This document shows positions 30,563 to 62,873 of a stretch of 64,000 nucleotides of DNA, piece by piece. The DNA comes from Pseudomonadota bacterium. Its GTDB lineage: Bacteria > Bdellovibrionota > UBA1018 > CAIMNF01. The translations under genes were made by a program, and so were the position numbers. The notes beneath the pieces are model-generated. The model ran no database searches. It was not told the origin of the DNA and was given only the letters and a program-made list of their open reading frames with translations. Within the stretch, counting starts at the first letter, position 1. Every line of letters begins with the position of its first letter. Where the stretch lies: the NCBI GenBank assembly GCA_027491115.1, contig JAIXWV010000041.1:7274-71273 (forward strand), in the 5' to 3' direction.

Positions 30563-30639
30563 GCGGGAGTAGCTCAGTTGGCTAGAGCGCCACGTTGCCA
30601 ACGTGGAGGTCGAGGGTTCGAGCCCCTTTTCCCGCTCCA
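30563..30639 (+). tRNA. tRNA-Gly (anticodon GCC)
   Basis: Cloverleaf folded by hand: acceptor GCGGGAG/TTCCCGC, D-arm GCTC..GAGC, anticodon stem CCACG/CGTGG with loop TTGCCAA, T-arm GAGGG TTCGAGC CCCTT, then CCA. Confidence 0.9.
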
Positions 30640-48750: not shown

Positions 48751-48839
48751 TGGTGCCGAGGACCGGAATCGAACCGGTACGTCTGTTGCCAAACCCAGGA
48801 TTTTAAGTCCTGTGCGTCTACCAATTTCGCCACCCCGGC
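48751..48839 (-). tRNA. tRNA-Leu (anticodon TAA)
   Basis: The reverse complement folds as GCCGGGG...CTTAAAA anticodon loop with a long variable arm, GGTTCGATTCC T-arm and CCA end. Confidence 0.9.
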
Positions 48840-48895: not shown

Positions 48896-50266
48896 TTATC
48901 CCTTGGTCTTCAAAAAATGCATCCGGACAGGGGTCCCAAGGTAGCCGTAATGCTCCCGGATCGCGCGAACCAGGTGCCGACTTAGACTGAAATGGATCTT
49001 TCGCGGGTCACTCACATGCGCCACAAAAGTCGGCGGGTTCCGCCCGGACTGATGGACGAAATAAAACTTTGCATTGTTCGGATTGTGGATCTCGGCCGCG
49101 TTCCTCAGGAACTCGGTAAGCTCCTTGGTCTGGATCTTGAGAGAACGCTGTTCGATCACGGCCTGGGCCACGCGGAAAAGACGGTCAAGACCGATCGAGT
49201 CCTTGGCGGTCGTGAAAACCAGCGGAGCGTAACCGAGGAAACGGATCTTCTTCCGGATCTCCTCCTCGGCGAGCTTCTGGGAAAACTCCTTGTTTCCGAC
49301 CTGGGTGTCCCACTTGTTGAGCACCAGGATCACACTGCAACCCATCTCTTCGATCAGTCCCGCGATCTTCTCGTCCTGCTCGTAGACCCCCTGCTCGCCA
49401 TCCATCACGAGGAATGCGAGATCGGCACGCTCGAGAGTTTTACGGGTTTGCACCACCGACAACACTTCGATCCCCTGCTCGGTCTTGTTCTTGCGTCGGA
49501 TCCCCGCGGTGTCGATCACGGTGAAGTCCTTGCCGTTCCAATTGATGTCGAGATCGATCGCATCAACCGTGGTTCCCGCGATGGGACTCACAATCGTACG
49601 CTTTTCGCCGCAAATCGCGTTCAAGAGCGTGCTTTTCCCGACATTGGGCTGTCCAACGATGGCAATCCGGGGAGTCCGCGGGACATAGACTTCCTCTTTC
49701 TCCGACTCGGTCTCATCATCGATTTCCTCCTCGGGCACCCCGGGCAGTGCTTCGGGATTCAGCAAATCGACCACCATTTCCTTCAACTCGTCGATCTGCA
49801 AGGCATGCTCCGCAGAAACCGGTAGCAAGCGGCCCACTCCAAGAGAGTAGAACTCAGCAAATCGTTCCTCGGCCAGATCGGAGTCCGCCTTGTTCAACAC
49901 CAGGATCACAGGGATCTTCTCACTGACTCCGGAGCGACGAAGCTCGGAAAAGACCTCTTCATCCGCATGGGTGAGGCCGACCTTAATGTCGACCACGAAA
50001 AGCACCACCGAAGCTTCCTTGAGTGCGGTATCGACCTGGAGGCGGATCTCCTCCTTGAACTGTCCCTCTCCGAGACCTCCGGTGTCGATGAGATTCACCG
50101 GATACTCCTTGGCACGAACCCAGAAACTGGCTGGTTCGACGATTCGGTCACGGGTCACACCCGGCGTATCGAGGACCAAAGCCCGCTTTCGACCCAGGAG
50201 ACGGTTGAACAGACTGCTTTTTCCGACATTGGGTCGCCCCACAATCACCACATTGATGGACATCAT
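48896..50266 (-). CDS. der: GTPase Der (EngA), two G-domains plus KH-like
   Basis: Two G1 motifs (GRPNVGKSS and GQPNVGKST). Confidence 0.95.
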   Translation of the reverse strand: MMSINVVIVGRPNVGKSSLFNRLLGRKRALVLDTPGVTRDRIVEPASFWVRAKEYPVNLIDTGGLGEGQFKEEIRLQVDTALKEASVVLFVVDIKVGLTHADEEVFSELRRSGVSEKIPVILVLNKADSDLAEERFAEFYSLGVGRLLPVSAEHALQIDELKEMVVDLLNPEALPGVPEEEIDDETESEKEEVYVPRTPRIAIVGQPNVGKSTLLNAICGEKRTIVSPIAGTTVDAIDLDINWNGKDFTVIDTAGIRRKNKTEQGIEVLSVVQTRKTLERADLAFLVMDGEQGVYEQDEKIAGLIEEMGCSVILVLNKWDTQVGNKEFSQKLAEEEIRKKIRFLGYAPLVFTTAKDSIGLDRLFRVAQAVIEQRSLKIQTKELTEFLRNAAEIHNPNNAKFYFVHQSGRNPPTFVAHVSDPRKIHFSLSRHLVRAIREHYGYLGTPVRMHFLKTKG

Positions 50267-51210
50267 CGTCTTTCCTTACCGGCCCGGGTCCCCTTGCCAT
50301 CGAACTCGTAACCCAACTGTTTCATCTTCCTGGACTCGGAGGTCCAACCTTCGAGCACTTTCACCCGGAGTTCGAGGAACACGCGTTCCCCGAGCAGTTC
50401 TTCGATCTCTTTCCGGGCGGCAGTACCGATCTCCTTGATCTTCTTGCCGCCGGCACCGATCACCATCCCCTTTTGACTCTCGCGTTCCACATAAATCAGT
50501 GCGGCAATTGCAACCGGCTTGAAATCCTCGCGATAGCTCTCAATCTCGACCGCGCAACTGTAGGGAAGCTCGTCTCCGAGTTTCATGAAGAGCTGCTTCC
50601 GGATCATCTCGGCGACCACGAAGCGGGAACTCCGGTCGGTCAGTGCATCAGGATCCTCGTACAGAGGAGGCCCGTCCGGAAGACGATCAAAAAGACCGGT
50701 GACCAGCTCGGGCACCCCCGTCTTTTTCTCGGCTGAAATCTGGATGGGAGAAAGGACTTCGACACCGGCACCGGTCAAAACAGTCCGGCACTCCTCGAAA
50801 TAGGTGGCCACCCACTCAAAACGCTCCGGCTCACGCTTGGTCAGGTCACACTTGTTCAAGACCGGTAGCACCGGGGCCTCCGACAAACGCAGGACCTCCA
50901 GCACCAACCTCTCGGCCTCGGGCTTGCTGAAAGGGTCGACCAAATAGAGTACCAAATCCGGACCCTCGAGTGCGCGCTTCACCTCTTGCATCATGAAAGC
51001 GTTGATTCCCCCTTCGCGTGCCCGATGGATCCCCGGGGTATCCACGAATACGATCTGCCCGCGCTCGTCCGACAGGATTCCGCGAATCTGATCCCGGGTG
51101 GTCTGGGCTTTGGGTGTGACGATCGAAATCGATTCACCCAAGACCGCATTCAAAAACGTGCTCTTCCCGGTATTCGGCCTTCCTACCAAAGCAATCACAC
51201 CCGACTTCAT
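50263..51210 (-). CDS. era: GTPase Era
   Basis: GRPNTGKST, DTPGIH and a C-terminal KH domain. ATG (51210) overlaps the rnc stop as ATGA. Confidence 0.9.
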   Translation of the reverse strand: MKSGVIALVGRPNTGKSTFLNAVLGESISIVTPKAQTTRDQIRGILSDERGQIVFVDTPGIHRAREGGINAFMMQEVKRALEGPDLVLYLVDPFSKPEAERLVLEVLRLSEAPVLPVLNKCDLTKREPERFEWVATYFEECRTVLTGAGVEVLSPIQISAEKKTGVPELVTGLFDRLPDGPPLYEDPDALTDRSSRFVVAEMIRKQLFMKLGDELPYSCAVEIESYREDFKPVAIAALIYVERESQKGMVIGAGGKKIKEIGTAARKEIEELLGERVFLELRVKVLEGWTSESRKMKQLGYEFDGKGTRAGKERR

Positions 51211-51941
51211 TTTTCGAATCCTCCGTCCAACTCCGGAAGCACCCGGAGGGCCTCGCAGGCCGCGTTCTGTTCCGCATTCTTCTTCGACGATCCCTCGCTC
51301 GAAGCCAGCACACGATCCTTGACCCGAACTTCCACCGTGAAAACCTTGGCATGATCCGGACCGTTCGATGCGATCAGGTGGTAAGTGGGGGTAAGTCGAT
51401 AACGACTCTGGATCAATTCCTGGAGACGCGTTTTGTGATCCTGGAATGAAATTGTGCAATTTTCGGCCCTGAACAAGGGAGCGAAGAGGTAGCGGACCAC
51501 GGGGTATACGGCATTGAATCCTCCATCGATGTAGATGGCGGCGATCAGCGCCTCGAACGCGCTCGACAGGATCGAGGCCTTCTCGTGACCGCCCGTCCGG
51601 GTCTCCCCTTTTCCAAGAAGCATGAGTCCACTCAGTCGAAGGCTCTTCGAGATCTCGCTCAGGGTCTTTTCGTTCACAACCGCAGCACGCATCTTCGAGA
51701 GCTGCCCCTCACTCGCTTCCGGGAACGCCTCCAAAAGAAGATCTGAAATCACCAATCCCAGAACCGAATCGCCGAGAAATTCTAGACGTTCATTGTTCCG
51801 TTGGACCGGCAACCGCTCCTGGTGATTCTCCTGACCGTAAGACACATGGGTCATCGCGAGGATCAACAGCCTCGGATCTCCGAACGGGTAACGGATCTGG
51901 TCCTGAAGTCCCTGAAGGGTCTGGGGTCTCTGATCAGGCAT
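51207..51941 (-). CDS. rnc: Ribonuclease III
   Basis: Signature ERLEFLGDSVLG and a C-terminal dsRBD. Confidence 0.9.
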   Translation of the reverse strand: MPDQRPQTLQGLQDQIRYPFGDPRLLILAMTHVSYGQENHQERLPVQRNNERLEFLGDSVLGLVISDLLLEAFPEASEGQLSKMRAAVVNEKTLSEISKSLRLSGLMLLGKGETRTGGHEKASILSSAFEALIAAIYIDGGFNAVYPVVRYLFAPLFRAENCTISFQDHKTRLQELIQSRYRLTPTYHLIASNGPDHAKVFTVEVRVKDRVLASSEGSSKKNAEQNAACEALRVLPELDGGFEK

Positions 51942-53358
51942 GGCACTCTCCAATCCAAGAAACCTCGCCTGAAGCGCGATCGACAAACCAACGGCCGATC
52001 CTCACCGGTACAATCCGGTTCCGGGTCAATCCGGGGGAAGACTCGCCCTCCGGAAAAAGCACTCTCTGATAGTCCGGAGAATAGCCTGCAAGCCAGGTTC
52101 TCGTTCCATCCGGTCCCTTCACGCGCCCTTCCACGAGGACGCCTTCGATTCGCTCCAAGCCACCAGCACGGATTTCAGAAAAACGACGGGTCATTCGATC
52201 GAGACTGAGTGACAGCAGGCGCCGGGCACGGAATTTTCTCACTGAAAAATCAACAGGGTCCGGAAGGCGTGTTGCCGGTGTCCCGGAGCGTTCGCTGTAG
52301 GGAAACACGTGGAGCCGCGACCAGTACCATCGACCGAGACGCTCTTCCATGGCCGAGAACTCCTCCTCGGATTCCCCCGGAAAGCCGGTGATCAGGTCCA
52401 TCCCGACGAAGGGTCTTCTCTTCATCGAACCCAGGCGTTCGAGGCAATCCTCCACTTCGGCCAAAGTGTACTTCCGCTTCATGAGCTTCAAAATTCGCGA
52501 CTCGGTGTGCTGGAGAGACACATGAAAATGGGGGCAGAAAGCATCATGCTCTTCCATCATGGAAATCATCCTTCCGGAGATTTCCGTCGGATCGAGGGAC
52601 CCGACCCTCAAACGCTCGATTCCCGAATGGATCAGAATGGACTCGATCAAATCATCGACCCGGGGCTGATCCGACCAATCGATCCCGTAATCCCCAATAT
52701 TGGTGCCGGTCAGGATGACTTCCCGGATGCCTTCGTCTTTCAAGCGTTTCACTTTTTCGACGATCTCGTCGATCCGGAGACTCCGGGCGGGGCCACGGCC
52801 ATAAGGAATCACACAATAGGTGCAAAAGGCGTTACACCCTTCTTGAACCTTGATGAACGCCCGGGTCCGGAAAGTGGATGCTCTGGGGTCGAGGCTCAGA
52901 ATCTCGTCGGCACCGGTGGAAGGCATGGCCCACTCACGGTCCATGGGATGGCGGGAGCGGAATTCCTGATATCCGCTCACCGTTCCGAGAATCTCAGGGT
53001 GAGAGGGCGCGGACTCGAGATGTTGCACGATCCGGTCCGCAGCGCGGTCCTTGTCTTGATTCCCGATCACCGCACTGACTCCGGGAATCTTCAATGCCGA
53101 TTCAGGATCGACTTCTGCGCCACAGCCGGTATAGATCACACGGACCGACGGATTCTTACGGGCCAGATCCCGGACGAGCTTTCTCGATTGCCGATCGGCT
53201 TCATCGGTCACTGTGCACGAGTTGACCACGATGACATCGGCGTCAGCGTCACTCACCGCCGGACTCCACCCGTGCTTCAGCAATCCGGCTTCGATCTGCT
53301 GACCGTCCGAGGAGTTCGCCTTGCATCCGAGAGTTTTGACAAGAAATTTCTGTTTCAT
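51934..53358 (-). CDS. MiaB-family radical-SAM methylthiotransferase (MiaB/MtaB-like; exact subtype unresolved)
   Basis: MTTase N-domain (LGCKAN), radical SAM CNAFCTYC, C-terminal TRAM. Start at the internal ATG overlapping the upstream gene stop. Confidence 0.8.
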   Translation of the reverse strand: MKQKFLVKTLGCKANSSDGQQIEAGLLKHGWSPAVSDADADVIVVNSCTVTDEADRQSRKLVRDLARKNPSVRVIYTGCGAEVDPESALKIPGVSAVIGNQDKDRAADRIVQHLESAPSHPEILGTVSGYQEFRSRHPMDREWAMPSTGADEILSLDPRASTFRTRAFIKVQEGCNAFCTYCVIPYGRGPARSLRIDEIVEKVKRLKDEGIREVILTGTNIGDYGIDWSDQPRVDDLIESILIHSGIERLRVGSLDPTEISGRMISMMEEHDAFCPHFHVSLQHTESRILKLMKRKYTLAEVEDCLERLGSMKRRPFVGMDLITGFPGESEEEFSAMEERLGRWYWSRLHVFPYSERSGTPATRLPDPVDFSVRKFRARRLLSLSLDRMTRRFSEIRAGGLERIEGVLVEGRVKGPDGTRTWLAGYSPDYQRVLFPEGESSPGLTRNRIVPVRIGRWFVDRASGEVSWIGECHA

Positions 53359-54392
53359 TTCATCACCAGAATCCTTGCACCACCGAGAATTTCCTGGTTT
53401 TCCACCCAAACCACACCCTGCCCTTTTTCGAGTGAGATTCCGGAAACCTTCACTGGCTCCTCGAAAGCCACCTTCAAACGACTGCCTTCATACTGGATCA
53501 ACCTCACCGGCAAGGGACGTTCCGCTCCTTGAAACAGAAGACCCGTCCGGACCTCCCTCATTCCCGGATCCGGTCTGACAAACCAGTAGGCCTCTTCCAA
53601 GTGCAACTCCTGATAGGCGGCAGCCGGATCCTCGACCACCTCCACCACCGACTCGGCCCGAAACAAGGCCTTGATCCGATAAGTCCGCTCCGGATGCAGG
53701 GGATGCTTCCAGACACCACCGGTTTCGAACAAATGCACTGGAGATTCCCCGAGAAGTTCCCGCGTATCGGACATGACTTTATAGAGACCACGACTCCGGC
53801 TGGACGGGATGAGCTCAGGATCGTTCGCCATCCTGTTCCAATCGATTTCAAATTCCCGGGTGATCTCCTCCGGAGCGACCTCTTGCGCCAGCTTCTCTAG
53901 CATGCTTGCCGGAATCGAACCGACAGGCAGCATCATCTTGGAGAGTTGACTCTGCCCGAACCCGGCTAAAAGCAATATCGCGTCCAGGTCGGATCCGGCA
54001 CCTTGAACCACACGGGTCAATCCAGCAGAGGGATCCTCTTGCAAGGTCACGGCATAGCCCCCGGCAATCCGGTCACTCTTAAACTGTTGTGCGGCCTCAA
54101 GCAGATGAGGGAGCAACACACGGTGGTGAAAAACAGCTTTCGGAGAAAATCGGGCACCTTTCGTATCCGCGACCTCGACCTCGAGCTTGCCAATCCTGAG
54201 CCATTCATCCCTGGAGGGGACCCGTTGGATCTGGAGTCCGAGTTTTCGTTCCAGTTCGAGCAATTTCTCGGCGTTTTTTTCGGATCCGCTCAGATCGAAA
54301 TGAATTCCACGGACCTGGAATCCTTGTTTCTTCAGGAGCCAGGCTGTGACCAGACTTTTCGGACCACCGCTGATCGCCACCAGGATCTTCAT
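53355..54392 (-). CDS. MnmA (tRNA 2-thiouridylase) homolog lacking all cysteines and the PP-loop Asp
   Basis: KILVAISGGPKSLVTAWLLKKQGFQVRG aligns to MnmA [28 protein letters not shown]. Later blocks (MLPVGSIP..LEKLAQEV; LGGARIL) also align. The protein contains zero Cys. Confidence 0.6.
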   Translation of the reverse strand: MKILVAISGGPKSLVTAWLLKKQGFQVRGIHFDLSGSEKNAEKLLELERKLGLQIQRVPSRDEWLRIGKLEVEVADTKGARFSPKAVFHHRVLLPHLLEAAQQFKSDRIAGGYAVTLQEDPSAGLTRVVQGAGSDLDAILLLAGFGQSQLSKMMLPVGSIPASMLEKLAQEVAPEEITREFEIDWNRMANDPELIPSSRSRGLYKVMSDTRELLGESPVHLFETGGVWKHPLHPERTYRIKALFRAESVVEVVEDPAAAYQELHLEEAYWFVRPDPGMREVRTGLLFQGAERPLPVRLIQYEGSRLKVAFEEPVKVSGISLEKGQGVVWVENQEILGGARILVMK

Positions 54393-55558
54393 GAGGCACG
54401 GCCTTTCTGCTCAAGGATCCCTGACAGGGCTTTCAGAAAACCTTCCACCTCTTCAGCATGGTTCGAGGGGCCGAATGAAACACGAATCGAGTTGAGCGCC
54501 GCTTCACGGTTCGCTCCCATGGACAGGAGCACTCTCGAAGGCTCGATGACTCTCGCCTTGCAAGCACTCCCGTGACTTACGGCGAATCCCCTCAAGTCGA
54601 GGAGCTCGATCCAATTTTCGTAAGACTGGAATTGTTTGAAGCTAAAGCGGGTGGTGTTCGAAATGCGCCGTTCCTGCCATCCCCAGATCTGAATGGTGGG
54701 ATCAATCCGGATGAGGCCCTCTTCAAGTCGGCGCTGCAAAAAACCGGTCCTCTGCTGAAAACCGGCAGGGTCGAGATCTTCGCATGCAAAACGTGTCGCC
54801 ATCATTCCGAGTAGATTCTCGGTCCCTCCGCGGAGCCCGCTATTCTGGGATCCTGTCAGCAATGGGGCGAGACCCGAACCCGGACGCTTCCAAATCAAAC
54901 CGGTTCCGGCAGGTGCACCGATTTTGTGTGCAGAAAAAGTGACATAATCCGCAGGTGTCCCCGGGACATCCAAAAGGATCTTTCCCCAGACCTGGGCTCC
55001 GTCGAGGTGCAAGCGCACCTCGATACCGGAATCGCGGATGATCCGGGACAATGGTGCCAGCGGAGTCAGTACGCCGGTTTCATTGTTCGCCCAGAACAGA
55101 CTGAGTCCGATCGATCGAAGTCCTCGGTCACGAGCTTCTTTCAACATCTCCGACAGGCGGGCCAAGTCGTAGGAACCCTCAGGAAGCAAGGGCAACTCGG
55201 CCTTGAATGAAACACCCAGTCCCTCGAGAAGATCGTGGCTGGCGGAATGCTCACCTGCACCGATGATCATTCCTTCCACGGTCCGCTCCAAGCTCCGGAT
55301 CACCGTCTGGTTCGCTTCCGTTCCGGAAGAAACCCAGACCAAGTCGTCGGGTGAAACCGCCTCCCCCAAGGTACGGGCCACCACCAGGGAGGCCTCGTAC
55401 ATGAGGTGCTGCATTTTCTGTCCCGGTCGATGCCGGCTGGATGGATTCGCCAGGAACAATTCCTCGTTCTCTAAGAACGAGATGAGACGATCCCTGACCG
55501 AATGACTGACGCCTGCGGAAGCGTTGTAATCAAGATAGTGGACGTTCTTTTGCCACAT
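54389..55558 (-). CDS. Cysteine desulfurase (NifS/IscS-like)
   Basis: PLP-lysine motif SFSAHKIGAP and active-site loop SHGSACKARVIEPSRVL. Confidence 0.85.
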   Translation of the reverse strand: MWQKNVHYLDYNASAGVSHSVRDRLISFLENEELFLANPSSRHRPGQKMQHLMYEASLVVARTLGEAVSPDDLVWVSSGTEANQTVIRSLERTVEGMIIGAGEHSASHDLLEGLGVSFKAELPLLPEGSYDLARLSEMLKEARDRGLRSIGLSLFWANNETGVLTPLAPLSRIIRDSGIEVRLHLDGAQVWGKILLDVPGTPADYVTFSAHKIGAPAGTGLIWKRPGSGLAPLLTGSQNSGLRGGTENLLGMMATRFACEDLDPAGFQQRTGFLQRRLEEGLIRIDPTIQIWGWQERRISNTTRFSFKQFQSYENWIELLDLRGFAVSHGSACKARVIEPSRVLLSMGANREAALNSIRVSFGPSNHAEEVEGFLKALSGILEQKGRAS

Positions 55559-56048
55559 CCGGCGTCACGCTTCCCGCTCCGGAAGAGCTGCCCCGGTTCA
55601 GCAACTGGGTTCCCGACTTGGGAAGCTCCTGTTGCCCGCGTGCCTTACGGATCAAGTCTCCCACACTGGTGGTGGTCAGATAATCCTGCATGATGGTTCC
55701 CAGGTTCTCGAAGTAAGACTTAGTGAGCACAAACTCAACCGTGTCGCTCTTCAGGTCGCCGCTTCCGATCAGGTCTTTAGCTGGGTTGATGTTTTCACCA
55801 ACCGAAGTCAGAACCTCTCGGACAGAAATCTCGTCCATGGTCCGGGACAGAACATATCCGCCCCCCGGTCCACGAACTGACTTCACCACAGCACCTTTAC
55901 GAAGTCTGCGGAACAGTTGCTCCAAATAATGGAGCGAAATGTTTTGACGCTCGGAAATCTCCTGCAAGCGAACAGGCTTCCCGTTCGAATGGAACGACAG
56001 ATCAAGAATGGCACGGACAGCATAACGGCCTTTGGATGTTAAACGCAT
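55530..56048 (-). CDS. Rrf2-family regulator without Cys cluster (CymR-like)
   Basis: MRLTSKGRYAVRAILDLS...ISLHYLEQLFRRLRKGAVVKSVRGPGGGY. RBS GGAGGT before the ATG at 56048. Confidence 0.75.
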   Translation of the reverse strand: MRLTSKGRYAVRAILDLSFHSNGKPVRLQEISERQNISLHYLEQLFRRLRKGAVVKSVRGPGGGYVLSRTMDEISVREVLTSVGENINPAKDLIGSGDLKSDTVEFVLTKSYFENLGTIMQDYLTTTSVGDLIRKARGQQELPKSGTQLLNRGSSSGAGSVTPDVAKERPLS

Positions 56049-56292: not shown

Positions 56293-56898
56293 ATGGGCGA
56301 CGCGAAAAAGAAGGATCAAGAAACCATCTCCATTGTGGTGGATGAGTTCAACTCAGCCGTGCCGGGGGTGACCATGTTGCTGAATCCGAAGGTGATTTTG
56401 GAGCGTGAAGCCTCACGGATGAAACTGGAACCATCAGGTTCCGGCACTCCGGAAGCTCCCCTCCAAACTGAAGATCCCCCCAAATCGCCTTTAGCCGAAC
56501 TCGGTGTGACCCTTGAGCTTCACTTTGAGGAAAACGGGACGGGCTTCAAATTCCTGAAAGCCGTACCTCATTCTCAGGAGAAGATGGAAGACTGGCAGAA
56601 TGAAGTCTACCGTGGGATGAAACTCGAACTCGATGTATTCGGGATCAACATTTCCTTCCAGGAATTTTCTGGGAAGAAAGATCCCTTCAAAGCGGATGCT
56701 TTATGTGTCCCGGAGGACTCCTGGATCCAGACCGTTCGATCGAGAGAACATTCCACTCGATTGTATGTATTGATTACCCGGCGCTCCTTGTTGATGGAGA
56801 AAGAACGAGTCTATACCTTGCTCGAAGGATCTGGTGAAAAAGACTCCAACGATGACAGTGATGACAGTGGCGGAATCGAAATCGATTTCGCCTCTTAA
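56293..56898 (+). CDS. Hypothetical protein with acidic C-terminus
   Basis: 201 aa. Divergent from the Rrf2 operon across an AT-rich 245-bp region. Confidence 0.45.
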   Translation: MGDAKKKDQETISIVVDEFNSAVPGVTMLLNPKVILEREASRMKLEPSGSGTPEAPLQTEDPPKSPLAELGVTLELHFEENGTGFKFLKAVPHSQEKMEDWQNEVYRGMKLELDVFGINISFQEFSGKKDPFKADALCVPEDSWIQTVRSREHSTRLYVLITRRSLLMEKERVYTLLEGSGEKDSNDDSDDSGGIEIDFAS

Positions 56899-58931: not shown

Positions 58932-59693
58932 TTATGGAGCGTGAATGGCGGAAATCATCTCTCGGACCGCTTGCTCGAGACCGACGAGTGCGGCACGACA
59001 AACAATGGCATGGCCGATATTGAACTCTTCGATCACATCGAGCGCCGCGATTTTCCTGACGTTCCGAAAGTCGAAACCGTGCCCTGCATGCAGGTGGATT
59101 CCCACCTCGCGCCCGGCCCGAATGGCGCTCTCCAGCCTACGAAACTCTTCCTTCTCGATCTTCGCACTGTTTTTGCCATAGAACTTCTGGGTCGCGTTGC
59201 AATACTTGCCGGTATGAATTTCAACCGCATCGGCCCCGAGTTCTTTCGACAATCTCACCACAGCAGCATCCGGCTCGATGAACAAGGAAACCCGAATGCC
59301 TTTCTTCTTGAAGTCGGCGATCGCCTTTTTGATCCGGGCACGGTACTTCTTCACATCAAGACCACCCTCGGTCGTCACTTCCTGTCTGCGCTCGGGAACG
59401 AGACAAACCCAGTCCGGCTTCACTTTCAAGGCGATCTTGAGCATGGAAGGCGCAAGCGCACATTCGAGATTGAGCGGCAGACCGCCCTTCTTCCTGAGCG
59501 CAATGACGTCTGCATCCTGGATGTGTCGACGGTCTTCACGCAAATGGATGGTGATCTGGTGTGCTCCGGCTTTTTTCACCAAAGCCGCGGCCTCAAGCAG
59601 ATCAGGATAAGGGGTTCCACGGAGTTGTCTCAGGGTTGCGATGTGATCGATGTTGACGCCTAGTCGGGGGATGAGCCAAGGTGTAGTGTTCAT
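58932..59693 (-). CDS. pdxJ: Pyridoxine 5-prime-phosphate synthase
   Basis: LGVNIDHIATLRQLRG...HLREDRRHI. Confidence 0.9.
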   Translation of the reverse strand: MNTTPWLIPRLGVNIDHIATLRQLRGTPYPDLLEAAALVKKAGAHQITIHLREDRRHIQDADVIALRKKGGLPLNLECALAPSMLKIALKVKPDWVCLVPERRQEVTTEGGLDVKKYRARIKKAIADFKKKGIRVSLFIEPDAAVVRLSKELGADAVEIHTGKYCNATQKFYGKNSAKIEKEEFRRLESAIRAGREVGIHLHAGHGFDFRNVRKIAALDVIEEFNIGHAIVCRAALVGLEQAVREMISAIHAP

Positions 59694-61102
59694 TGTCCGA
59701 GATCCTCGATGAGTGCTTCTTTCAGTTGATTGGCAATGCGTTCATTGGTGACGGAACTCTCGCTCTCCACCAGAATCCGCAGTTTGGGCTCGGTGCCCGA
59801 ATAGCGCACGAAAATACGCCCTTTCTTCAAACCGTCCCGACACTTCTTGAGCGCCTTCTGGTAAGAATCGAGTTCTTCGAGATCCTTGCGTTCGCGGACC
59901 TTCAAGTTCAGGAGAGTTTGCGGGAACAGACGTATTCCTTGCTTGAGCTCCGAAAGGGGCTTGCCGGTCTTCTGCATGATCTCGAGCACCTTCAGTGCAG
60001 CCAACGCTCCGTCTCCGGTGGTTGATGAATCCAGGAAGATAATGTGTCCAGACTGTTCCCCGCCGAGATTGATACCTTCCGAGCGCATTTTCTCAACCAC
60101 GAACCGGTCTCCCACATTCGCCCGGTGCATGGTGATCCCCTTCTCCTTGAGCGCGATCTCAAGACCGATATTCGACATCGGAGTGGTTACGATCGCGTCC
60201 TGCTTCAATTCTCCACGTTCTTTCATGGCCAAAGCGCAGAGACCGATCACAACGTCCCCATCGAGTATTTCACCGTTCTCATCTGATAGAATGACCCGAT
60301 CTGCATCCCCGTCGAGTGCGATTCCGATGTGAGCCCCCGATCTTCGTGTCAAATCAGCGATTTTTTCTGGATAAAGGGCACCGATTTCGTGATTGATATT
60401 CGTGCCGTTCGGACCGACACCGATCGTCGTCAGAACAGCTCCGAGTTCTTCGAAGGCCATCGGTGCGGCCTTGTAGGCGGCACCGTTTGCACAGTCGAGT
60501 GCGATTCGGAAACTGGACAGATCGGCATTGTCGGGGAACTTTGACTTCAGGAAAACGATGTATCGACCGTGGGCCTCTTCGATCCGGTAGGCTCGTCCGA
60601 TGTCGGCCCCACGAGGCAGCTCGGCGTCCATCCGGATCGGATCCGCCACCAATTCCTCAATCACCGCCTCCACCGCATCCGGCGCCTTGAATCCGTCGGG
60701 ACCGAAGATCTTGATCCCGTTATCGTGGAACGGATTGTGGGATGCAGAAATCATCACTCCCGCATCAGCCCTCATGCTCTGGGCGACGAAGGCGACTCCG
60801 GGAGTGGGAAGCGGTCCAAGCAGGATCGCTTCTCCTCCCATGGCGCAAACACCCGAAGCGAGCGCCTGCTCGATCATGTAGCCGGACCGGCGGGTGTCTT
60901 TACCGATCACAATCCTGATCTTCGAGGCGTTGGCCTTCTTGCGGAACGGATCACCGAAACCGGTCTTCCACGCCTCGCGCTCCCGCAGTAAGGAATACAC
61001 CAGCGCACGCCCCACCCGCATGGCGACCTCTCCGGTCATCGGATAAACATTGGCCTCTGCACGGATTCCGTCTGTACCGAACAATCGACGCTTCATCATG
61101 GC
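59690..61102 (-). CDS. glmM: Phosphoglucosamine mutase
   Basis: LFGTDGIRA and active-site SASHNP. Confidence 0.9.
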   Translation of the reverse strand, partial: AMMKRRLFGTDGIRAEANVYPMTGEVAMRVGRALVYSLLREREAWKTGFGDPFRKKANASKIRIVIGKDTRRSGYMIEQALASGVCAMGGEAILLGPLPTPGVAFVAQSMRADAGVMISASHNPFHDNGIKIFGPDGFKAPDAVEAVIEELVADPIRMDAELPRGADIGRAYRIEEAHGRYIVFLKSKFPDNADLSSFRIALDCANGAAYKAAPMAFEELGAVLTTIGVGPNGTNINHEIGALYPEKIADLTRRSGAHIGIALDGDADRVILSDENGEILDGDVVIGLCALAMKERGELKQDAIVTTPMSNIGLEIALKEKGITMHRANVGDRFVVEKMRSEGINLGGEQSGHIIFLDSSTTGDGALAALKVLEIMQKTGKPLSELKQGIRLFPQTLLNLKVRERKDLEELDSYQKALKKCRDGLKKGRIFVRYSGTEPKLRILVESESSVTNERIANQLKEALIEDLGQ

Positions 61103-62034
61103 TTCTTCACCACCACCCGGGTCAACGGAGGAATCACCCGGACTAAATGTACTTTTTCTGGGAGCTGGACCCGAATCCACTTCAAGTAATCGCCCTCAGG
61201 AACATCCCGAACATCCACGAGAGCGGTAATCTGATCGCCCTCGATCTTGACGTTATCTCCGGGCTCAGTCCGGATGATGACAGTGACTTCGTCGTCCGTG
61301 ACTTTCGCCATGCCCGACGGCTTCACCTTAACCGGAACATGTCTCACCCGGAACGCCTGACCCCGTCCTTGGACTTCAACGTACAACTCCGGCAAAACTC
61401 CGTCGACATCCACCCCGAGGGACTTGAAATCAAAAGCAAGCGGAAGAACCGAAGTCTCATGAAGACCGGAAAGATCCACGGGCACCGTGAGGACTTCTTC
61501 CAAGTCTCCCATCCGGCTTTTCGGACCCTTCACCTTGACCACAGGAGGATTGACCTCGATCCGGCTCGATTTCAAACCATCCGGCAATTCGCCGGTGAAA
61601 GTCACTTTGACCGGAATCTGCTTTCGCTTGAGTTCTTCGTAGCGCAACTGAACCGCATTAGGTGTGATGGTCAGTACCTTCACACCAAGTGGAAGTTTGA
61701 TCGCATCACTGAAAATTCGATGGGTCTGTACCCCAGCCTTGGCACCCTTGACCGTCGCACGGATCGGTTCCTCCATCCGGTTCTGGATGGAGCGCAAAAA
61801 AGCTTTAGGACCGGAAAGCTTGAAAGTGATCTTTTCCGGAACAGGGTCGACCAGAATCTGGTCTTCGGGCATGATCGCCTCGAAAGGGATCTCTTTCGTG
61901 ATCTCGATGGTCTGGGATCCGAACACCAACACCCAAACTGTAAGCGCGATCAAAATGGACGCGAGCTTCATGAGCCATTGATAACGAAGCATGCTCCAAA
62001 ACAAATGAAATGGACCGAGTACCCAGCGCCTCAT
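61096..62034 (-). CDS. cdaR: YbbR-domain protein CdaR (regulator of CdaA)
   Basis: N-terminal TM plus repeated YbbR-like beta-rich modules. Conserved cdaA-cdaR-glmM synteny. Confidence 0.75.
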   Translation of the reverse strand: MRRWVLGPFHLFWSMLRYQWLMKLASILIALTVWVLVFGSQTIEITKEIPFEAIMPEDQILVDPVPEKITFKLSGPKAFLRSIQNRMEEPIRATVKGAKAGVQTHRIFSDAIKLPLGVKVLTITPNAVQLRYEELKRKQIPVKVTFTGELPDGLKSSRIEVNPPVVKVKGPKSRMGDLEEVLTVPVDLSGLHETSVLPLAFDFKSLGVDVDGVLPELYVEVQGRGQAFRVRHVPVKVKPSGMAKVTDDEVTVIIRTEPGDNVKIEGDQITALVDVRDVPEGDYLKWIRVQLPEKVHLVRVIPPLTRVVVKKP

Positions 62035-62873
62035 CGATCGCCCTCCCCTTTACCGCGGACGGTCTGAATGAAATTCCGGATCCGGTTCGGAAGCGGCTGC
62101 TCGGGAGAGTTCAGATTCAACAACTGGGCAAGAGTGTCACGAATCTGGCCTTCGGTCAGGTTGCGGATCATCTCCCCGCTCTGGACCAAATGGGCCTGAC
62201 CGGCTTCCTCGCTCACCAGGACCACAATGGCATCAGTCTCTTCGGTCAGACCGAAAGCCGCACGGTGACGGGTGCCTAAACCGCGGTCGATCTCCGTGTT
62301 CTTGGAAAGGGGAAGAAAACATCCAGCAGCGGCGAGACGATCTCCGGTGATGATCACGGCTCCATCATGAATCGGTGATTGAGGAAGGAAAACCGAATAC
62401 AGTAATTCAGCGCGAACGCGAGCATCCACCTTGGATCCCGTGTCCATGAAATTCTTGAGACCATTCTCCCGTTCGATCACAATCAATGCACCGATGCGGT
62501 CCCGGGCCAACTGGATGGCCGCTCGAGCGATCTCGTCCACCATCTCTAGCTGATTCTCGCTCTCTGCGGAGTACAAGAACGGATTCCTTCCCATCCGGGT
62601 GAGTGCTCGACGTAAATCATCTTGAAACAGGACAATGATGATAAAGACAAAGTAGTCGAAGAAATTGCTCAGCAACCAGTGTGTTGCATAGAACTCGAAC
62701 TGGCTCGAAAGGACGAAGCCCGCTGTCAGGACTCCGAGACCGATCAGCATCTGTACTGCCCGCGTCCCTCGGATCAGATTCAGGAGGCGGTACACGATGA
62801 ACGCGACGATGGCGATATCGAGCAAGTCCTCCTGTCTGAAACTCGAATGCAGGTTCGCGAGCAACTCCCGCAT
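62031..62873 (-). CDS. cdaA: Diadenylate cyclase CdaA (c-di-AMP synthase)
   Basis: 3 N-terminal TM. DAC domain motifs DGAVII and GTRHRAA. Confidence 0.85.
   Translation of the reverse strand: MRELLANLHSSFRQEDLLDIAIVAFIVYRLLNLIRGTRAVQMLIGLGVLTAGFVLSSQFEFYATHWLLSNFFDYFVFIIIVLFQDDLRRALTRMGRNPFLYSAESENQLEMVDEIARAAIQLARDRIGALIVIERENGLKNFMDTGSKVDARVRAELLYSVFLPQSPIHDGAVIITGDRLAAAGCFLPLSKNTEIDRGLGTRHRAAFGLTEETDAIVVLVSEEAGQAHLVQSGEMIRNLTEGQIRDTLAQLLNLNSPEQPLPNRIRNFIQTVRGKGEGDR

Follow-up and report, generated by a model that had tools for sequence, protein, structure and literature searches.

What becomes of an enzyme whose gene is kept in place by selection after every residue needed for its reaction has gone? 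This question is raised by a locus in a 64,000-nucleotide stretch (here called the window) of contig JAIXWV010000041.1 from a Bdellovibrionota genome (GCA_027491115.1), which belongs to a group of predatory-type freshwater bacteria (Bdellovibrionota/Oligoflexia). There, a homologue of the tRNA thiolase MnmA, which we refer to as MnmA*, is encoded between a NifS-type cysteine desulfurase and the methylthiotransferase MtaB. In bacteria, both MnmA and its product, 2-thiouridine at tRNA position 34 (s2U34), are regarded as nearly universal and in many cases essential, and the enzyme has been put forward as an antibiotic target. Here, we report that MnmA* is clearly under strong purifying selection and almost certainly non-catalytic for the known chemistry, as judged from its sequence. 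We consider it fairly probable that MnmA* is a conserved pseudo-enzyme that arose from MnmA at its original locus and binds tRNA and/or its neighbors NifS and MtaB.

Loss of the catalytic elements

Two types of MnmA are recognized, and the aspartate of the PP-loop (SGGxDS), which serves adenylation, is strictly conserved in both; the D13A variant of the Thermus thermophilus enzyme is inactive, and the CxxC-C cysteines of such C-type enzymes bind an essential iron-sulfur (Fe-S) cluster (PMC7025502). In the D-type enzyme of Escherichia coli, D99A, C102, and C199 variants are inactive both in vitro and in vivo (PMC11784392).

None of these elements is present in MnmA*. A sequence-only reading of this DNA had described SGGPKS in place of SGGVDS and no cysteine in 345 residues, and translation of the open reading frame (ORF) and alignments bear out both. 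The columns at issue in that description could also be read directly: E. coli Asp99 aligns with Lys85 and Cys102 with Phe88, and MnmA* has no counterpart of the loop bearing Cys199. Across the family, Phe88 is invariant, the D/C99 position is Lys or Arg, and the PP-loop Asp position is occupied by K, E, H, R, A, G, N, Q, or S, never by Asp. The PP-loop Asp, D/C99, C102, the C199 loop, and the DQS motif are missing from every one of the 32 family sequences; members other than MnmA* contain zero to five cysteines, none at conserved positions.

To describe what was kept, we compared 80 canonical with 17 family sequences at those positions where the canonical ones show conservation of 80% or more. 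The family retains Gly/Leu/Ala/Pro core positions, most of ATGH, the P-x-G turn, the C-terminal GQ...LGG, and the alpha-1 helix after the P-loop (SLVTAWLLKKQG, likewise a canonical motif); MnmA* shares S.VTAWLLKKQG, ATGH, LFPxG, and the C-terminal LGGxxI with canonical MnmA. Lost are Asp17, the P-N-P-C-x-x-C-N...K segment, K107, Tyr129, the KDQSYFL motif (with Gln151-Ser152-Tyr153), Lys175, Cys199-Phe200, Tyr349, and, in the central domain, His232, Gly234, and Gln242 of the H.G...GQ motif. Retained positions are thus core or structural, and losses cluster at the active site and the central-domain motif. Because the PP-loop Asp, KDQSYFL, the CxxC/DxxC pair, and the third-Cys loop are all absent, U34 thiolation by either the persulfide or the Fe-S mechanism is not expected of MnmA*.

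Could MnmA* nevertheless remain a U34 thiolase? It would have to receive a persulfide-bearing Cys loop inserted in trans by the desulfurase and activate U34 at a non-canonical nucleotide site. The desulfurase is intact and translationally coupled to mnmA*, the P-loop backbone elements G9, S13, and alpha-1 are invariant, and many related CxxC-C MnmAs also lack the PP-loop Asp, which may therefore be dispensable in this lineage; moreover, Bacillus subtilis YrvO passes sulfur straight to MnmA with no carriers (PMC11784392). However, there is no constraint on what stands in for the Asp, the acid/base D/C99 is Lys or Arg, C102 is Phe, the Cys199 lid loop is deleted, and DQS, Y129, and K107 are gone, whereas single mutations at such sites abolish activity in both model enzymes (PMC7025502, PMC11784392). 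We judge such a thiolase to be very unlikely. The related suggestion of the sequence-only reading, an enzyme using a different sulfur-relay chemistry, is unlikely, as the ATP-activating Asp, DQS, and the mobile Cys199 loop have disappeared along with the cysteines.

Family assignment and predicted fold

MnmA* matches the Pfam MnmA HUP domain PF03054 (E value of 4e-10; 40 bits against a threshold of 20.6) and falls far below the cut-offs of the NCBIfam MnmA equivalogs (66.6 versus 284 bits for NF001138 and 48.8 versus 236.95 bits for TIGR00420). A Pfam scan did not detect PF20259 or PF20258 in MnmA*. A phmmer search of PDB sequences matched E. coli MnmA (2der; E value of 3.7e-12).

An AlphaFold2 model built from a 20-sequence family alignment was confident (predicted local distance difference test, 88.3; predicted template modeling [TM] score, 0.84). 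When it was searched against the PDB with Foldseek, the top matches were Streptococcus pneumoniae MnmA/TrmU (2hma; TM score of 0.78) and three E. coli MnmA-tRNA complexes (2der, 2deu, and 2det; 0.73 to 0.75). These alignments spanned approximately 360 to 374 columns and all three domains, with other PP-loop proteins far behind. The model thus shows that MnmA* is predicted to keep the three-domain MnmA fold (an N-terminal PP-loop HUP domain, a central domain, and a C-terminal beta-barrel), the fold common to T. thermophilus C-type and E. coli D-type enzymes. The fold and the closest sequence relatives, both MnmA over three domains, rule out membership in a different PP-loop family, which had been raised as an alternative. 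The automated label "tRNA 2-thiouridine synthase MnmA/TrmU" in Joint Genome Institute (JGI) records overstates the function of proteins of the MnmA* type.

A conserved gene under purifying selection

Searching 5.8 billion proteins returned 30 full-length homologues, 30 to 85% identical and all 323 to 354 residues long, and when 1.84 billion cluster representatives were searched with a profile, approximately 19 clusters at 50% identity, each scoring at least 250 bits, fell within the family proper. Intact ORFs of 323 to 367 residues occur in more than 30 independent assemblies. In a scan of one genome per species, mnmA* was found in 11 species, all represented by metagenome-assembled genomes (MAGs) labeled Bdellovibrionales, Oligoflexia, or Bdellovibrio and mostly from freshwater lakes; the nearest homologue, 91% identical, lies on a 744-kb contig. 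Across family sequences that are only 30% identical, 34 columns are invariant. The Cys-less form is therefore conserved in related genomes, a comparison that the sequence-only reading had proposed.

Ratios of nonsynonymous to synonymous substitution rates (dN/dS) of mnmA* against three close relatives were 0.078, 0.055, and 0.062. Synonymous divergence from two of these (L002 and L003) is saturated (dS > 1.4), which makes the comparison with L001 (dS of 0.51, dN/dS of 0.078) the most reliable. Among neighboring genes (TsaE rows left out), nifS had a ratio of approximately 0.09 and the others 0.01 to 0.04. A sequencing or assembly artefact, or a decaying pseudogene, could be suspected because no other annotated gene of the cluster evolves as fast as mnmA* (30 to 91% identity across the clade, where Rrf2 is 79 to 99%). 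The independent assemblies with intact ORFs, dN/dS values of 0.055 to 0.078, the confident structure prediction, and the invariant columns refute both, and we give this explanation next to no weight; the sequencing problem once proposed for this gene can be set aside.

One contig with the family stands apart in its label. The record L011 (CALPVV020000049.1) bears the betaproteobacterial name "Nitrosovibrio sp. Nv4", and its genes follow the Bdellovibrionota-type synteny from Rrf2 through NifS, MnmA*, and MtaB to RNaseIII and Era. Its neighboring genes are 57 to 79% identical, and the contig is probably mis-binned or mislabeled.

Graded loss at a single locus

The gene order Nnr-TsaE-orf-Rrf2-NifS-MnmA*-MtaB-RNaseIII-Era was the same in all 11 species genomes. 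We then compared contigs carrying ever more distant relatives of the neighboring desulfurase, which share the arrangement GlmM-PdxJ-Nnr-TsaE-orf-Rrf2-NifS-X-MtaB-RNaseIII-Era-Der and differ in the protein at X. In GCA_900143125.1, X is a full canonical C-type MnmA (SGGVDS, NPCTQCN, and DQS). In the Oligoflexia MAG GCA_023700925.1, X has CxxC...C and DQS with a PP-loop of SGGAES. X is Cys-less but retains DQS in GCA_027486675.1, GCA_027482725.1, and two metagenome contigs, and in the family of the window it is without the PP-loop Asp, the catalytic Cys, and DQS alike. This series was read directly from the motifs and loci and does not depend on a tree.

Since a canonical C-type MnmA occupies the same syntenic slot beside the cysteine desulfurase in relatives, MnmA* is a positional orthologue and not a paralogue; gene order and motifs together show it to be, by descent read from sequence, an in-place derivative of C-type (CxxC...C, Fe-S type) mnmA. 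The sequence-only reading had offered a "non-catalytic tRNA-binding paralog": non-catalytic stands, given the loss of all catalytic elements, and paralog does not.

In a neighbor-joining tree, the window family and four DQS-retaining Cys-less representatives (P0164, P0167, P0182, and P0204) formed one clade inside the C-type MnmA radiation. Further Cys-less lineages, P0170/P0178 and P0186/P0195 (L037:821-1876), have the same Rrf2-NifS-MnmA-MtaB context and fall outside that clade; the catalytic Cys thus seem to have been lost more than once, independently, among MnmA relatives. The tree is distance-based with a star-like backbone and is indicative, and the count of independent Cys losses (at least three) is provisional. 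Among the intermediate forms, representative P0225 is labeled Oligoflexia bacterium.

In approximately 39 of the 150 nearest MnmA representatives, CxxC...C and DQS are preserved while the PP-loop Asp has given way to A, S, H, Y, Q, E, G, N, or K (for example, P0168, P0171, P0174, P0179-P0181, P0184, P0185, P0188, P0190, and L029:7188-8339). K107, Y129, Y153, and K175 are eroded in this group as well. Judging from their sequences, one possibility is that this lineage can do without the Asp; the other is that the proteins bind an Fe-S cluster but do not adenylate.

Dead homologues of tRNA-modifying enzymes are known to be kept for substrate binding, as in ADAT3 with ADAT2 and Trm6 with Trm61; each of these heteromers includes an active paralogue, and MnmA figures in none of them. 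The nearest conceptual precedent is Ctu2/Ncs2, also a PP-loop tRNA-thiolase homologue, which has lost the Fe-S Cys ligands of its homologue Ctu1 and is still required for thiolation (PMC10067955). By analogy, MnmA* could be an accessory subunit that gives tRNA binding or dimer architecture to an active U34 thiolase encoded elsewhere, and a catalytically dead protein kept by selection is what such a role would leave. However, Ctu2 belongs to the Ncs6/TtuA subfamily and is a paralogue paired with active Ctu1/Ncs6, whereas MnmA* is the sole copy seen and the orthologue, not a duplicate, of an active enzyme. Four canonical MnmAs used as tblastn queries against the window and the 21-kb loci of 11 related genomes found only the known gene, and the pattern [SG]GG.D[ST] had no match in all six frames of the window. 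Among canonical MnmA matches (the best 120 of one query), none lay on a contig equal in length to a family-bearing contig, which is a weak test. We therefore hold an accessory subunit to be quite unlikely.

Probable role of MnmA*

The four genes rrf2-nifS-mnmA*-mtaB are closely packed on the minus strand of the window. The stop codon of nifS overlaps the start codon of mnmA* in an ATGA, and the same overlap joins mnmA* to mtaB, as read from both junction sequences. Such ATGA overlaps are the usual mark of translational coupling in a single operon; nifS, mnmA*, and mtaB are coupled in this way. MtaB makes 2-methylthio-N6-threonylcarbamoyladenosine at position 37 (ms2t6A37) and in B. subtilis acts on tRNA-Lys(UUU), and TsaE, encoded upstream, acts in the synthesis of N6-threonylcarbamoyladenosine (t6A37).

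We propose a binding role for MnmA* because the scaffold that it keeps is a tRNA-anticodon-arm-binding architecture and its operon partners act on the anticodon loop or in sulfur supply. MnmA* would use the retained scaffold for non-catalytic binding, with the anticodon arm of tRNA-Lys, -Glu, or -Gln and/or the co-translated NifS (upstream) and MtaB (downstream) as candidate partners, and sulfur from the desulfurase would flow to MtaB and general Fe-S needs instead of to MnmA.

Several features of the family weigh against this proposal. Its most conserved stretches, residues 1 to 30 (P-loop/alpha-1/beta-2), 46 to 56, 106 to 120, and 151 to 165, make up the old nucleotide-binding core. The best-conserved of these, residues 1 to 30, could mean that the old nucleotide/phosphate site still binds a ligand and supports some chemistry; conservation of the core as a whole would also be in keeping with a retained site for a phosphate-bearing ligand or with a surface for contacts between proteins. 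The central domain, by contrast, which in canonical MnmA takes part in tRNA recognition together with the C-terminal domain (PMC7025502), shows the lowest conservation in the family and has lost H.G...GQ, which weakens the tRNA-binding version of the proposal. In addition, the family-specific invariant residues D33, E48, Q56, F88, E171, E262, W270, D275, Q300, and E302 could form a new active site. Charge is uninformative as a proxy for RNA binding, as the isoelectric points of the family (5 to 8) overlap those of canonical MnmAs.

Taken further, these points would make MnmA* a neofunctionalized enzyme with a new active site for another reaction on tRNA or some other substrate. Strong purifying selection and invariant polar or aromatic residues foreign to canonical MnmA (FD32-33, F88-H89, LQED117-120, E262, W270, D275, and Q300xE302) are in keeping with this, and there are precedents for PP-loop relatives taking on other reactions, such as YcfA in thioguanine synthesis (PMC6225789). 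Yet no cofactor-binding or catalytic motif is recognizable in MnmA*, its Pfam and NCBIfam matches are confined to MnmA-type PP-loop families, several of the foreign residues vary in a more distant subclade (LQED becomes SLSYEP or NVHFEP), and the surrounding genes are those found around canonical MnmA, without newly added partners. A new enzymatic activity thus appears unlikely, and non-catalytic binding remains the reading that we prefer.

A literature search pairing MnmA with the terms pseudoenzyme, Bdellovibrio, and catalytically inactive found no account of a Cys-less MnmA. A conserved, selected, and stripped orthologue means that a function other than catalysis must be sought for the MnmA scaffold, and the importance of MnmA* depends on whether its host bacteria still make s2U34. 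We raise, as a tentative possibility, that a free-living Bdellovibrionota/Oligoflexia clade (the family clusters described above and at least two more Cys-less lineages) gave up MnmA-dependent s2U34 and that the enzyme became a selected, non-catalytic factor of the anticodon loop or sulfur pathway. If so, a bacterial lineage would be living without MnmA-made s2U34, its Lys/Glu/Gln split boxes being decoded without s2U, or it would make s2U by an undescribed route; the Asp-less C-type MnmAs with Fe-S cysteines would then stand at an earlier stage on this path. The series at one locus, from canonical through loss of Asp and then Cys to loss of everything, could serve to separate the parts of MnmA needed for catalysis from those for binding and may help in the ongoing debate on whether MnmA uses a persulfide or an Fe-S mechanism.

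Gene set of the locus

The features of the cluster are collected in Table 1. In the sequence-only reading, the Rrf2-desulfurase-MnmA arrangement was likened to Bacillus cymR-yrvO-mnmA, the Rrf2 regulator was said to be without Fe-S cysteines, and the desulfurase was said to look intact; all three descriptions hold. The genes are adjacent on one strand, are kept together in at least 11 genomes, and follow the order of B. subtilis cymR-yrvO(nifZ)-mnmA (an Rrf2 protein without Fe-S ligands, a class-V desulfurase, and an MnmA homologue), and Tus relay genes are not nearby. The locus differs from the abbreviated B. subtilis s2U pathway in that the acceptor MnmA* has no persulfide-accepting Cys and the operon runs on into mtaB-rnc-era, with RNase III and then Era downstream of mtaB. 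The desulfurase has the pyridoxal phosphate-binding Lys (SAHKIGAP) and the catalytic Cys loop (GSAC), and SxHKIGAP and GSAC are kept in all relatives.

Table 1. Features of the rrf2-nifS-mnmA*-mtaB cluster, in window positions
Feature	Position	Strand	Basis and remarks
rrf2, regulator (IscR/CymR-like)	55530-56048	-	Start set at MRLTSKGRY, in agreement with the end coordinate of the sequence-only reading; 79 to 99% identical across the clade; without IscR Cys ligands
nifS, NifS/IscS-type class-V cysteine desulfurase	54389-55558	-	PF00266, E value 4e-36; TIGR03402, 207 bits
mnmA*, 345-residue Cys-less MnmA orthologue with degenerate PP-loop (pseudo-MnmA)	53355-54392	-	ORF and translation; PF03054
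Degenerate PP-loop SGGPKS, residues 8-13 (canonical SGGxDS)	54354-54371	-	Alignment
K85-A-V-F88 at the D/C99-x-x-C102 catalytic/Fe-S-ligand positions	54129-54140	-	Alignments
mtaB, ms2t6A37 methylthiotransferase (radical S-adenosylmethionine)	51934-53358	-	TIGR01579, 365 bits (cut-off, 357)

The Rrf2 protein is exceptionally well conserved, and all three IscR Fe-S cluster Cys ligands are missing from it. They are missing both in the degenerate clade and at the CxxC-C MnmA locus L029, so the regulator is of the CymR-like or apo type whatever the state of MnmA.

Between TsaE and Rrf2, a divergent ORF of 201 residues (56293-56898, plus strand) has no Pfam match. All related loci, those with canonical MnmA among them, have at this place an unannotated ORF of 199 to 337 residues that evolves very fast (28 to 83% identity). 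Of tRNA genes, the window contains just two, tRNA-Gly(GCC) at 30563-30639 (plus strand) and tRNA-Leu(UAA) at 48751-48839 (minus strand); genes for the MnmA substrate tRNAs (Lys, Glu, and Gln) are absent from it.

The longest ORFs of Era (50263-51459, minus strand; 398 residues from a TTG) and RNase III (51207-51986, minus strand) overlap by approximately 250 nucleotides. Era homology begins near MKSGVIALVGRPNTGKS, and the true Era start is therefore probably some 80 codons downstream of the listed TTG. Directly upstream of PdxJ-Nnr-TsaE, at 59690-62873 on the minus strand, lies a trio encoding CdaA (diadenylate cyclase), YbbR/CdaR, and a GlmM-type phosphoglucosamine mutase. The CdaA-CdaR-GlmM cyclic di-AMP module is best known from Firmicutes; here, the trio is kept at the same position in related loci.

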